Assembly: GCA_951406725.2 (NCBI GenBank)
Contig: OX597814.1
Coordinates: 146,258,001-146,322,000 of the forward strand
Reading direction: 5' to 3'
DNA: 64,000 bases
Source of the DNA: Octopus vulgaris
Lineage: Eukaryota
Part shown: positions 45,915-53,719 of the stretch, in pieces
Layout of the letters: the number at the start of each line of letters is the position of its first letter
Position numbering within the stretch: the first letter of the stretch is position 1
Position numbers and translations under genes: made by a program
The notes under the pieces: generated by a model
Told to the model about the DNA's origin: nothing
What the model saw: only the letters and a program-made list of their open reading frames with translations
The model's database searches: none

Positions 45915-46067
45915 ATTGTGTATAGAAGAATATATTAATAAAAAGAATTCCAACCTTGTCTGATTTTCACGTTTTATTTACAATCTTATAATGATATATT
46001 ATAAGATAATATATTATAATTGAATAAAATAAAATGAAATAGTAGAATGTTAAATATTCATTCTGAT

Positions 46068-46112
46068 TGAACTAGTATTTTCATGCATTGAATTCTGCAA
46101 TCTTCGGGTTCA
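46068..46112 (-). ncRNA. Minimal hammerhead-like motif, left arm (stem III palindrome broken)
   Basis: Mirror of 53508-53552 but reads GAAAATACTA. Confidence 0.5.
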
Positions 46113-46606
46113 TGTAGTAGTGTTGACAGTCATGCTTCACAATTTTTGACTGTAGCAAGATGAGTGATTCTGTGCTATAAATACAGCTGGGTAGGCTCCA
46201 GAGTGCTAGGTTTTGCAAACTGTATTCTGACCAATCAGTGTGTAGTATCACTCAATTACTTAAGCTGATTGGTTGGTTGAGCTGATTGGTTTAGGCATCA
46301 CGCTTTGTTGGACAGGTCAAGAGTCCTGTATCTTGACCCTGGCCGAAGCAGCAATTGTTGGGTTATTTTTAGAAATGTTGTAAATATCCTTTGTCAGAGA
46401 TTTTTATATTTTTATATTTCAATTGTCATCATCATCATTGTCAGCACCTTAATTATTGTTGCTAGTGGTGATGGTGGTGGCAATAGAACTTTTAACCCTA
46501 AATAAGATAATTTTCCTGCTATCTTCGTCTTGATCACCTTTAGTATTGTTGTTGTTGTTAGTGGTCATGGTCGTAGCAGTGGAAGTAATACCTCTAAGTA
46601 TTATTA

Positions 46607-47086
46607 TTATTGCTTATTTAGCTTGGGTTCGAATTTATCAATAAAATTCTTTTCTCTGATTTTCCTCTCGATTTCACTTGGGCTGTGTAATTTGTAGAAT
46701 GGAAATATTATATATATTTTCCGACCACATGTTGCTAGGTGGTTACTCAAAGGTATCTGACGGACCTCTGGGTCTCTAATCTGTTGCCGGTGTACACGTG
46801 AGCGTTCTAATAGTGCGTTTCCCGTCTGACCTACATATATTTCTTCACAATTTGGGCATTTGATGCAGTAAATTAAATTTCTGCTTTTGCAGTTCATATT
46901 CGCGTTTGTGAATATTTTCCCGGTTTTTGTGTTTATATATTGACCGGTATGTATGAATTGGCATGTGCCACATCGGCTATCATTGCATTTAGATACCGTG
47001 AATGTTTGGTCTTTGTTGCTGAGGTCAAATTTTGCCTTTGTTAGTAATGTTTTCAAGTTTTTAGGCTGTCTTTTACTAAGCACCAT
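46607..47086 (-). CDS. PLE Cys-rich linker and GIY-YIG endonuclease, separated from RT by an in-frame TAA
   Basis: RQPKNL, CxxxxCxxC, NLIYCIKCPNC..IYVGQT, ER..H, NH, RE..FI motifs. Confidence 0.9.
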   Translation of the reverse strand: MVLSKRQPKNLKTLLTKAKFDLSNKDQTFTVSKCNDSRCGTCQFIHTGQYINTKTGKIFTNANMNCKSRNLIYCIKCPNCEEIYVGQTGNALLERSRVHRQQIRDPEVRQIPLSNHLATCGRKIYIIFPFYKLHSPSEIERKIREKNFIDKFEPKLNKQ

Positions 47087-47110
47087 AGCTCGATCCTTGA
47101 TTATGTCTTT

Positions 47111-48934
47111 TTATTCATTACTTTGGGCAATGATTGGTAGGTTTGCTTTGGCAATGTTGAAGATATTCTGGTGACATGGGTTGTGTGTCACTATGAATGG
47201 TATGACTTGTTCTTGTTTTCCTCTTCCTTGGGTTGTCTTAAGTTGTTGTATAGGTATTTTTATAGCCCGCTGTATGCCATTTTCTATAAGTAGAGATGGG
47301 TATTTTTGTTTGAGCAAAAATTCTCTTAGTTCTATTAGGCGTTTGTTCCTGATATTTGCATCTTCTACAATAGTACAAATTCTTCTGGCTAGGCAGTATG
47401 GGATGTTACGTTTTGTATGTGGTGGATGGCACGACTTAAAATTTAGGTATTGATGTGTGTCTGTGTGTTTATAGTATATATCTGTGGTGATGGTGGTGTC
47501 TTTTTTAATTACCATTATATCCAGGAATGGTAATTTGGTACTACTCATCTCCTTTGTAAATTTGAGAGATGGGTGTAGGTTGTTCAGGAGGATATTGAAC
47601 TCTTCCAGAGTATTTAGAGATTCTGTCCAGATTATGAAACAGTCGTCTAGGTATCTCTTCCATGCCTTTTCAATATACTTTCTAAATCCAGTGCCATAGT
47701 TTACCTCCACCTCTTGGTAGAGTTGTTCTTCTAAGTATCCCATTACAGAGTTGGCGTAAACGGGAGCAAACCTCGTTCCCATCGCCGTGCCTCTAATTTG
47801 GATGTAATTCTTTCCATTGAAGAAGAATGTGTTATTTTCTAGAATAAGTTTGACTGTGTCTAATATAAATGGCACTGTGAATCTGCTGGGAATCACTTCT
47901 CTATGTTTTTCTAACCAGTATTTAATCGCCTTTATTCCTAAATCGTGTGGAATATTGGTGTAGAGGCTTACCACATCAAAACTTAGCAAAACTGAATTTG
48001 TTTCTGTTGTTTTGGGAAGATGGGACAGGAAGTCGATGTCATCCCTGATGAAACTTGGTATGTAAGTACATAGTGGTTTCAAAACAATGTCAATAAAATT
48101 GCTTAGACGGTGTGTAGGGCATGCTGGACCAGCTATAATAGGTCTAAGTTTTAGGTCTTTTGGATGTAATAATTTTATGTACTCACTTTCTTGTTCTTTT
48201 ACTGCCTGTTGAATGATTTTTGATTTGTGTATTTTTGGTAAGCCGTAGAAGTTGCTGGGTTTTGGTTCAAAATTGGTGATGTAGTCTTTTTCATTATCCG
48301 TAAGTGAGTTGTGGTGTGTTGAAATCAGGTTGTTGATCTTTTTCATGATGTGGTGGTCTATATTTGCGGGTATTTCACAATAGAAGGTTGTATCCTTCAG
48401 TTGGTCTTCAACCAAATCCTTATAGTATTCGGTATCCATAATAACAATTGCACCACCTTTATCTGCTTGTTTAATTATTATTGTTTGATCGTTTTGTATA
48501 CGTTTACATGCAGACATCTCTGATTTGCTAATGTTTGGCCTAACATTGGTATTGCGTCTAAGGGGAAATTTAGACAGGATATCAATGTATTGGTAAAGGT
48601 AGTTATTTCTTCCTTTTGGTGGGGTGAAATTTGATTTATTCCTTACTAGGGATTCATCAATCTCATTACTTTTGTTAGCGAAGAATTCTACAAGTCGTAA
48701 TTTTCGACAGAATTTTTGGATATCCTCCTTTAATTCTTGGTGGTTGGCTGTTGGTGTAGGTGTGAATTTCAGTCCTTTTGACAGAAGTTGGATTTCATCA
48801 TTGTCAAGATCTCTTTTTGATAAATTAATTATTTTAGGATCTATACGTTCAGTTGTTTGGGGTATGTTTCCTCTTGGATTTTTTCTTTCTCCGGTGTTTG
48901 TTGTCCTGACGTAAAAAAATGGATTTTTTTCTGG
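47111..48934 (-). CDS. PLE reverse transcriptase (frame open from 48934; first ATG at 48517)
   Basis: IINLS..LLSKGLKFTP, ADKGG, FYGLPKIHK, RPII, SFDVVSLYTNIP, GTAMG, RYLDD, LPFLD, YL...SCHP. Confidence 0.95.
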   Translation of the reverse strand, partial: PEKNPFFYVRTTNTGERKNPRGNIPQTTERIDPKIINLSKRDLDNDEIQLLSKGLKFTPTPTANHQELKEDIQKFCRKLRLVEFFANKSNEIDESLVRNKSNFTPPKGRNNYLYQYIDILSKFPLRRNTNVRPNISKSEMSACKRIQNDQTIIIKQADKGGAIVIMDTEYYKDLVEDQLKDTTFYCEIPANIDHHIMKKINNLISTHHNSLTDNEKDYITNFEPKPSNFYGLPKIHKSKIIQQAVKEQESEYIKLLHPKDLKLRPIIAGPACPTHRLSNFIDIVLKPLCTYIPSFIRDDIDFLSHLPKTTETNSVLLSFDVVSLYTNIPHDLGIKAIKYWLEKHREVIPSRFTVPFILDTVKLILENNTFFFNGKNYIQIRGTAMGTRFAPVYANSVMGYLEEQLYQEVEVNYGTGFRKYIEKAWKRYLDDCFIIWTESLNTLEEFNILLNNLHPSLKFTKEMSSTKLPFLDIMVIKKDTTITTDIYYKHTDTHQYLNFKSCHPPHTKRNIPYCLARRICTIVEDANIRNKRLIELREFLLKQKYPSLLIENGIQRAIKIPIQQLKTTQGRGKQEQVIPFIVTHNPCHQNIFNIAKANLPIIAQSNE

Positions 48935-52533: not shown

Positions 52534-53013
52534 ATGGTGCTTAGTAAAAGACAGCCTAAAAACTTGAAAACATTACTAACAAAGGCAAAATTTGACCTCA
52601 GCAACAAAGACCAAACATTCACGGTATCTAAATGCAATGATAGCCGATGTGGCACATGCCAATTCATACATACCGGTCAATATATAAACACAAAAACCGG
52701 GAAAATATTCACAAACGCGAATATGAACTGCAAAAGCAGAAATTTAATTTACTGCATCAAATGCCCAAATTGTGAAGAAATATATGTAGGTCAGACGGGA
52801 AACGCACTATTAGAACGCTCACGTGTACACCGGCAACAGATTAGAGACCCAGAGGTCCGTCAGATACCTTTGAGTAACCACCTAGCAACATGTGGTCGGA
52901 AAATATATATAATATTTCCATTCTACAAATTACACAGCCCAAGTGAAATCGAGAGGAAAATCAGAGAAAAGAATTTTATTGATAAATTCGAACCCAAGCT
53001 AAATAAGCAATAA
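52534..53013 (+). CDS. PLE Cys-rich linker and GIY-YIG endonuclease, same frame as RT after TAA 52507-52509
   Basis: Reads aat gaa TAA aaa gac ata atc aag gat cga gct atg. Confidence 0.9.
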   Translation: MVLSKRQPKNLKTLLTKAKFDLSNKDQTFTVSKCNDSRCGTCQFIHTGQYINTKTGKIFTNANMNCKSRNLIYCIKCPNCEEIYVGQTGNALLERSRVHRQQIRDPEVRQIPLSNHLATCGRKIYIIFPFYKLHSPSEIERKIREKNFIDKFEPKLNKQ

Positions 53014-53330
53014 TAATAATACTTAGAGGTATTACTTCCACTGCTACGACCATGACCACTAACAACAACAACAATACTAAAGGTGATCAAGACGAAGATA
53101 GCAGGAAAATTATCTTATTTAGGGTTAAAAGTTCTATTGCCACCACCATCACCACTAGCAACAATAATTAAGGTGCTGACAATGATGATGATGACAATTG
53201 AAATATAAAAATATAAAAATCTCTGACAAAGGATATTTACAACATTTCTAAAAATAACCCAACAATTGCTGCTTCGGCCAGGGTCAAGATACAGGACTCT
53301 TGACCTGTCCAACAAAGCGTGATGCCTAAA

Positions 53331-53444
53331 CCAATCAGCTCAACCAACCAATCAGCTTAAGTAATTGAGTGATACTACACACTGATTGGTCAGAATACAG
53401 TTTGCAAAACCTAGCACTCTGGAGCCTACCCAGCTGTATTTATA
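53331..53444 (+). promoter_or_regulatory. Candidate pseudo-LTR promoter: three CCAAT boxes and TATTTATA (mirrored at 46176-46289)
   Basis: ccaatcagc twice (53331, 53348), ctgattgg (about 53382), TATTTATA at 53437-53444 (TATAAATA on minus). Confidence 0.4.
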
Positions 53445-53507
53445 GCACAGAATCACTCATCTTGCTACAGTCAAAAATTGTGAAGCATGACTGTCAACAC
53501 TACTACA

Positions 53508-53552
53508 TGAACCCGAAGATTGCAGAATTCAATGCATGAAAGTACTAGTTCA
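53508..53552 (+). ncRNA. Minimal type I hammerhead-like motif in the PLE 3' region, CCGA core variant
   Basis: TGAAC-CCGAAGA-T-TGCA-gaattcaa-TGCA-T-GAAA-GTAC-TA-GTTCA: 5-bp stem I, 4-bp stem II, palindromic AGTACT. Confidence 0.62.
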
Positions 53553-53719
53553 ATCAGAATGAATATTTAACATTCTACTATTTCATTTTATTTTATTCAA
53601 TTATAATATATTATCTTATAATATATCATTATAAGATTGTAAATAAAACGTGAAAATCAGACAAGGTTGGAATTCTTTTTATTAATATATATATATATAT
53701 ATATATATACATAAATATC

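Follow-up and report, generated by a model that had tools for sequence, protein, structure and literature searches.

A long palindrome in Octopus vulgaris as a single two-copy insertion of a Penelope-like element, with a family-wide tail census suggesting priming from both target ends

How two almost identical retroelement copies come to lie head to head is the question raised by a palindrome within a window of 64,000 nucleotides (the whole stretch of Octopus vulgaris DNA analysed, from contig OX597814.1). A sequence-only reading had described the palindrome's geometry, and sequence comparison confirmed it: the arms, 45930-49535 and 50085-53690, are exact reverse complements of 3,606 bp each, with a coordinate sum of 99620, no indels and a sole mismatch (46078 T / 53542 G). 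Two Penelope-like element (PLE) copies with 3′ ends facing outward to AT DNA had also been recognized, and both arms indeed encode a reverse transcriptase (RT) and a GIY-YIG endonuclease, with (AT)n outside. The further claim of identical 3′ ends at both chromosome junctions did not hold, since the left copy continues into a tail while the right copy enters (AT)n directly. The palindrome is asymmetric, with a tail at the left end only and a spacer that belongs to the left copy. Its features are as follows.

45560..45883, no strand: left flank with the target tract, a (CA)n/(AT)n microsatellite; no exact border with the AT run of the tail can be drawn
45884..45929, minus strand: tail, the opening ~46 nt of a following monomer, made of 26 nt of unique sequence and an AT run
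45930..50085, minus strand: left copy, monomer 116-4271, 5′-truncated, without upstream pLTR
46068-46112, minus strand: mirror of the hammerhead-like motif; the lone arm mismatch sits in helix III
47110-46607, minus strand: GIY-YIG part, mirror copy in the left arm
48934-47111, minus strand: RT part, mirror copy, the same ORF2 RT in the left arm
48841..50085, minus strand: left-copy ORF1 (~430 aa from ATG in the family)
49536..50084, minus strand: spacer, the unpaired 5′ portion of the left copy, in the ORF1 region; carries 2 locus-private substitutions
50072..50085, no strand: inversion junction; exact microhomology of 1 nt, at 50085
50085..53690, plus strand: right copy, monomer 666-4271, 5′-truncated, tail-less
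50686..52509, plus strand: RT part of ORF2, 607 aa; RVT_1 E 1.5e-6, slightly below the Pfam cut-off; ends at a premature TAA
52510..53013, plus strand: GIY-YIG endonuclease with linker CX4CXXC and CCHH residues, 167 aa; GIY-YIG E 2.3e-6
53508..53552, plus strand: type I hammerhead-like motif (pattern match), core CCGAAGA...GAAA, palindromic GUAC helix III
53691..53709, no strand: right flank, (AT)n, then a very high-copy interspersed repeat

The tail corresponds to monomer 1-46 (window ~45884-45929), with its non-microsatellite portion at 45904-45929. The 549-bp spacer is element sequence, monomer 116-665, that extends the left copy 5′-ward. At ~4.2 kb plus the tail for the left copy and 3.6 kb for its partner on the right, both fall below the full length of the 4,271-bp family monomer. 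The 13 nt preceding 50085 match monomer 650-662 at 12 of 13 positions, with a 3-nt offset. A target-site duplication is unreadable within (AT)n. The locus is a single insertion of a young EN+ PLE into (AT)n, made of two 5′-truncated copies head to head. That one event produced both copies, as had been proposed, is upheld by four substitutions common to the arms and absent from all others of the 149 sampled segments. In itself the locus is an unremarkable specimen of an established class of element, has lost its coding capacity and lies towards the upper limit of family sizes.

Long palindromes are a known class of assembly artefact, and the junction of this one is known from the assembly sequence alone. 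In contigs of four of four sequencing runs, 49536 connects to 50085 with a change of strand, like the family's continuous sequence, and over 49536-53900 the contigs of these runs carry family alleles at locus-private sites and probably derive from other individuals. The same runs gave no contig crossing the inversion junction on the same strand, such contigs dropping single-copy variants of high-copy repeats. An assembly or fold-back chimera is extremely unlikely given that the symmetry ends exactly at the element 3′ end, the flanks differ, the tail is one-sided as at 28 other loci, and one arm holds a private mismatch.

An inverted 5′-truncated copy, a one-sided tail and a target of (TA)n together make up a layout already published for Penelope-like elements. 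In the available text of two studies of EN+ PLEs (PMC8557442; Pen2a_Av, PMC3846280), the copies likewise lie head to head with outward 3′ ends, a tail at one end and partial tandems, in (TA)n targets without discernible duplication; the one-sided tail is described there qualitatively, without counts. The octopus family has the corresponding partial tandems forming pLTRs, 5′ truncation and inverted 5′ copy, and the optional 30-40 nt tail at one end is here 26 nt of unique sequence plus an AT run, up to ~46 nt. Outward 3′ ends enter AT repeats at nearly all printed loci, the exceptions being L027 (truncated) and L044 (N gap). While the same texts give an inverted pLTR of ~200 bp, described as a variably truncated copy, the octopus inverted copy is 3.6 kb; unlike the published elements, the palindrome locus has no direct upstream pLTR.

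The coding regions point to a Neptune-type element. RT is followed by a C-terminal GIY-YIG domain, and a sibling copy reads as one 775-aa ORF. ORF2 is uninterrupted in 48 of the 57 segments covering it; at the palindrome locus, a premature TAA separates RT from endonuclease in both arms. The translation has a C-X4-C-X2-C linker upstream of GIY-YIG, within the Neptune pattern CX2-5CxxC, and by eye the CCHH residues appear as a CxxC within the GIY-YIG core, with a pair of His further downstream. Domain order, both zinc-finger-like motifs and microsatellite targeting are shared with Neptune-type PLEs as described in the available part of PMC8557442, a likeness of motifs and targeting rather than of position in a tree. 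The octopus element differs from these in having an ORF1 that precedes ORF2 and overlaps it in the −1 frame, and in a hammerhead-like core with C for U4. CCHH and the 4,271-bp monomer separate it from the Hydra clade (no CCHH, <3 kb), and the C-terminal endonuclease from Naiad/Chlamys, where that domain is N-terminal. The nearest named proteins are bivalve (Mytilus, Saccostrea, Pinctada), at 50-63% identity.

Other copies and their orientation, which the sequence-only reading proposed to check genome-wide, were sampled from top matches, a set weighted towards long and nearly identical copies from large contigs; 30 of the 104 sampled insertions are two-ended. Before counting, L018 (overlapping L017) and L037 (overlapping L065) were dropped and L048 and L049 merged; segments below 94% identity or 70 bp were excluded. 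The shorter arm spans 221-3,716 bp across the 30, one of which has longer arms than the palindrome locus. Long inverted copies are therefore routine in the octopus element family, and not rare as had been implied. According to the available text of PMC3681739, Drosophila virilis Penelope, which belongs to another clade in another host, is likewise a young, expanding family with long inverted repeats, and siRNAs map to its inverted regions in transgenic flies.

Tails follow a strict rule in this census. Exactly one tail is present in 29 of the 30 two-ended insertions; none has two, and L006 alone has none. Single-ended copies comprise 36 with a tail and 34 without, and independence would predict one-tailed pairs at 0.50 (p 2.8e-8); L027, L044, L088 and L104 were left unclassified. 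The shorter arm bears the tail in 16 pairs and the longer arm in 13, and arm lengths are uncorrelated (rho 0.01).

These data bear on a simple fold-back, in which the cDNA primed at the target would fold onto itself and be copied as far as its other end. Such a model accounts for near-identical arms, for the four private changes they have in common and for the imperfect 13-nt homology at the palindrome junction. A copy cannot hold sequence absent from its template, however, so fold-back cannot give the shorter-arm tails, and in L039, L064 and L076 the small loop is part of the tail-less arm. As a general mechanism, simple fold-back is contradicted, and it is highly improbable overall; it could still apply to the palindrome locus alone, since there it is the longer arm that bears the tail. 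The sequence-only reading gave two mechanisms: priming from both target ends fits the census, while simple fold-back fails on the shorter-arm tails and on the mixed sub-lineages described below.

Arms overlap by 0-6 nt at 23 of 29 junctions (mean 2.0, versus 0.67 for random joins), and six of 29 carry inserts, one of which (L069, 164 nt) does not align to the element. An apparent 27-nt insert at L064 proved to be a mismatch close to the junction, with no filler. Truncation points lie within 20 nt of each other in three of 29 pairs (permutation p 0.009); in those three the tail arm ends 3-17 nt before the tail-less arm, as expected of a chasing RT.

Excluding substitutions within 25 nt of the 5′ truncation, 28 arm pairs have 23 lineage variants and 16 locus-private variants common to both arms, indicating that the arms are usually of one source. 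At L006 (two sites), L007 and L075, the arms differ at markers found in 7-40 loci, so two templates are needed. A private-looking pair of variants at L046 recurs in L093 on a different contig, so apparently private variants can derive from a source copy. Private variants are shared versus unshared at 16:17 in inverted arms and 5:18 in direct partial tandems (Fisher p 0.053). Among the best 40 of 305-1,005 candidates per genome search, no other copy has the alleles shared by the palindrome arms, and none matches L051 or combines the two L085 alleles.

The palindrome locus carries 7 private changes in 4.1 kb, versus 0.65 per kb in single-unit loci. Such a load, as in an older copy, would suit two separate adjacent insertions later homogenized by gene conversion, and adjacent independent-looking insertions do exist (L064 has two). 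Since there is no target DNA at the junction between the copies, and since the one-tail rule would fail for independent events, this origin is barely plausible.

A hairpin intermediate addresses the rule more directly. Here the cDNA would copy itself, and staggered nicks by the endonuclease at two AT tracts of the stem would leave the tail on a random end, accounting for exactly one tail on either arm. The model also explains why arms have private variants in common: 16 across 45.5 kb of overlapping arms, and four at the palindrome locus. In their available portions, PMC8557442 explains the tail by an intermediate that the endonuclease resolves, and PMC3846280 favours self-priming on the antisense template. 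Against this, the arms belong to different sub-lineages at L006, L007 and L075, the L069 filler is foreign, and loops reach several kb with mostly 0-3 nt of microhomology; discordant changes show no clear enrichment in the shorter arm (13 vs 10). The hairpin model is therefore considered unlikely.

The one-tail rule, arm lengths independent of tail side and short junction microhomology suggest double-ended priming. Reverse transcription probably began from both 3′ ends of the cut target, in one case at the AT run of the pLTR end and in the other at that of the tail end. The endonuclease would cut both strands of the self-complementary (AT)n, and the target ends would each pair with a different AU tract, the two tract positions being ~46 nt apart in the element and the template usually one RNA or RNAs from the same source copy. 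The tail-primed RT would displace the first cDNA, and the two cDNA 3′ ends would be joined via a template jump or microhomology end-joining, followed by mutual fill-in. Single-ended insertions would be events where one cDNA survived, and the four arm-shared changes, stop included, would trace to mobilization in trans of a source copy that had mutated, or to later arm-to-arm gene conversion. L1 twin priming, as reportedly described by Ostertag and Kazazian in 2001, also has both target ends priming on the element RNA, and its inversions show short stretches of microhomology. The second L1 primer is said to start internally, giving two non-overlapping parts, whereas both octopus primers would start at the 3′ end, so that the 3′ region is duplicated.

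The closest biochemical parallel is the Poseidon protein of Anolis carolinensis, which, in the available part of PMC11167929, cleaves and extends both strands in vitro and is predicted to form a dimer. Two RT start sites bounding the tail, cutting and extension of both strands and an AT-rich target would be common to both systems. The proposed AT-annealing step differs from the Anolis case, since the Poseidon start sites lie at an AC-rich stem-loop without target homology and both proposed octopus sites fall on AT runs that match it. Inverted products are undiscussed in that text, and the available part of a preprint (10.64898/2026.07.22.740005) has nothing on inversions or tails. While the census favours double-ended priming, the missing source for the shared alleles fits copied first-strand errors equally well, inverted arms have private variants in common somewhat more often than direct partial tandems do, the 12/13 junction match is as compatible with fold-back as with two cDNAs pairing, and the lineage-discordant arms could stem from later ectopic conversion.

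The significance is at the family level: the available text of PMC8557442 calls the formation of tandem and inverted PLE ends undefined, and that of PMC11167929 leaves open the steps after first-strand synthesis. With one tail in 29 of 30 pairs and no dependence of arm length on the side that bears it, fewer mechanisms stay in play, and a direct in vitro test becomes available. It is an even bet that PLEs insert by double-ended priming on one RNA, with two start sites 46 nt apart each used once per RNA, a rule that would yield the inversion, the one-sided tail and the 50:50 split of single-ended copies. If true, the rule is checkable from genome sequence alone, in hundreds of near-identical marked copies. 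With about 3 in 10 sampled insertions palindromic, the family is a predicted source of hairpin RNA in the host.

Several minor observations concern expression of the element. Family ORF1 has no Pfam match. A donor-like GTAAGA at monomer 915, with in-frame AG options, makes a candidate intron, and contigs of four presumed RNA runs on the full monomer showed no spliced joints. RNA editing at monomer 2214 was rejected because the G allele co-occurs with the 3063T lineage, as was selenocysteine read-through, the stop being a TAA private to the palindrome locus. An Rfam scan returned no hammerhead, only microsatellite-driven miRNA matches below their thresholds; helices I and II of the pattern-matched, hammerhead-like motif are predicted to fold, with C replacing U4 in the core. 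ORF1 overlaps ORF2 in the −1 frame across the octopus family, and a candidate slippery heptamer is followed by a weak predicted structure (−6.9 kcal/mol over 80 nt).

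The arms of the palindrome, at 45930-49535 and 50085-53690, are reverse-complementary over 3,606 bp each, with no indels and a single mismatch at 46078/53542; this position-by-position comparison bears out the coordinates given in the sequence-only reading. In each arm, a TAA separates an RT frame of 607 aa from a GIY-YIG frame of 167 aa. Measured against the 4,271-bp monomer of this Penelope-like element (PLE) family, a natural unit taken from the tandem locus L017 (L-numbers denote other sampled insertions of the family), the copies are as follows.

Left copy: monomer 116-4271, minus strand, taking in the "spacer"
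Right copy: monomer 666-4271, plus strand

The copies are joined with 1 nt of exact microhomology, before which 12 of 13 positions match at an offset of 3 nt. A tail (monomer 1-46) extends the left end and is absent from the right, so the two chromosome junctions are unlike, and not identical 3' ends as had been proposed. On structural grounds, the locus is judged to be a real insertion rather than an artefact, because the symmetry ends where the element does, the sequences on either side are unlike, and a tail at one end only is also seen at 28 other loci. Nearby lie a separate self-inverted repeat (42093-42519, ~425 bp, 92% identity), broken DDE_1 transposase fragments (54334-55009, E 7e-11) and an ORF (55973-56284) that may resemble a piece of Helitron helicase.

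The family census drew on 105 stretches, the top matches of several genome searches. Merging overlaps gave 104 insertions including this locus, 70 single-ended, 30 two-ended (head-to-head pairs with both 3' ends outward) and 4 unclassified. The sample favours long copies of near-identical sequence that sit on large contigs; one search also enriched it for a single sub-lineage. The shorter arm of two-ended insertions spans 221 to 3,716 bp, with L085 the longest and this locus second. The tail is present in 36 of 70 single-ended copies; among two-ended insertions, 29 of 30 have one tail, none has two and one has none (binomial p 2.8e-8 versus 0.50). The tail lies at the left end (assembly plus strand) in 22 of 29 two-ended loci (21 of 27, p 0.006, in another count), a bias absent by eye from single-ended copies.

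We infer every step of a mechanism beyond these sequence patterns. A self-complementary (AT)n target would be cut and both ends would prime, each at its own start site. Such double-end priming would yield the one-tail rule, independent arm lengths, a usual shared source and end-joining-like junctions. Tailed and tail-less arm lengths are uncorrelated in two-ended insertions, and both kinds of end stop in an element AT run matching the target. The model agrees with in vitro work on an Anolis element (PMC11167929), in which both strands are cut and extended and synthesis begins at two sites that delimit the tail; those start sites are not target-homologous, whereas the octopus element ends in AT runs matching its target.

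Simple fold-back, in which a cDNA copies itself, one of the two mechanisms offered in the sequence-only reading, predicts a tail on the longer arm only. It is contradicted by the 29 one-tail pairs, where the tail sits on the shorter arm 16 times and on the longer arm 13 times. The main rival to double-end priming is a hairpin intermediate resolved via staggered endonuclease nicks. Truncation points lie 20 nt or less apart in 3 of 29 pairs (permutation p 0.009), and in these the tailed arm ends 3-17 nt before the tail-less arm, a shortfall that is only suggestive (n=3). Inversion junctions show overlaps of 0-6 nt in 23 of 29 cases (mean 2.0 versus 0.67 for random joins) and inserts of 1-164 nt in the other 6.

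Both arms of a pair usually come from one source, because they share multi-locus and locus-private substitutions: across 28 arm pairs (45.5 kb), 23 multi-locus and 16 private substitutions are common to both arms, and 23 are discordant, six at multi-locus sites. At L006, L007 and L075, the arms are discordant at markers found in 7-40 loci, which self-copying cannot produce unless conversion followed. This locus has four private changes in both arms, three missense and one nonsense. A search for sibling copies was run for four loci. The private pair of L046 recurs in a copy elsewhere, and another copy bears one of the two alleles of L085; no other copy with the L051 alleles was found among the matches listed, nor, in two genome searches that each scored 40 copies, a second copy with the four changes of this locus. 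Private variants in direct partial tandems were shared in 5 cases and discordant in 18, a rarer sharing than in inverted arms that falls short of significance (p 0.053). Shared private variants are therefore compatible with any of a mutated source, fold-back or conversion. L017 and L048-L049 are tandem arrays with three or more units; at the latter, two full units have private variants in common and the third departs from them at one site, the outcome expected of post-insertion unequal exchange.

In L1 twin priming, the second priming is internal. The inverted segment at L027:651-3288 (monomer 2079-3024) stops before the element's 3' end and is nearer to this type.

The locus is a coding-dead member of an already known kind of insertion. 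Inverted 5'-truncated copies with a one-sided tail are reported for PLEs in PMC8557442 and PMC3846280, and long inverted Penelope copies give siRNA according to PMC3681739. Neither a one-tail-rule count nor a double-ended priming model for PLEs was found in the literature searched, which comprised papers outside subscription. The family-level rule renders an open question about PLE integration testable, and the interest lies there rather than in the locus.

Searching the octopus genome gave at least 73 matches at 99-100% identity (24 scored of 2,277 candidates). The more diverged copies L102, L104 and L105 (15-22 substitutions) indicate an older layer alongside this near-identical burst. Monomer ORF1 (~430 aa, no Pfam match) overlaps the 775-aa RT-EN ORF2 in the -1 frame, a family trait seen at 50686-50779 (monomer 1267-1357); the overlap contains a U UUU UUU heptamer in the ORF1 frame with a donor-like GTAAGA upstream. 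ORF2 lacks an early Met and may be accessed by -1 frameshifting or through an intron. By its features, namely a CX4CXXC linker, CCHH residues and (TA)n targets, the element resembles the Neptune type as PMC8557442 lists it. A candidate hammerhead-like motif lies ~140-180 nt from the monomer 3' end, and the sole arm mismatch falls in its helix III, where G has changed to A in the left arm; minimal dimeric hammerheads are described in PMC4209133. The Leu codon that is TAA in this locus has independently become a stop (TGA) in L004, at monomer 3089. A 4,301-nt contig from run X9 (presumed RNA) circles the monomer once head to tail on L023:4885-9155, fitting tandem or circular templates.
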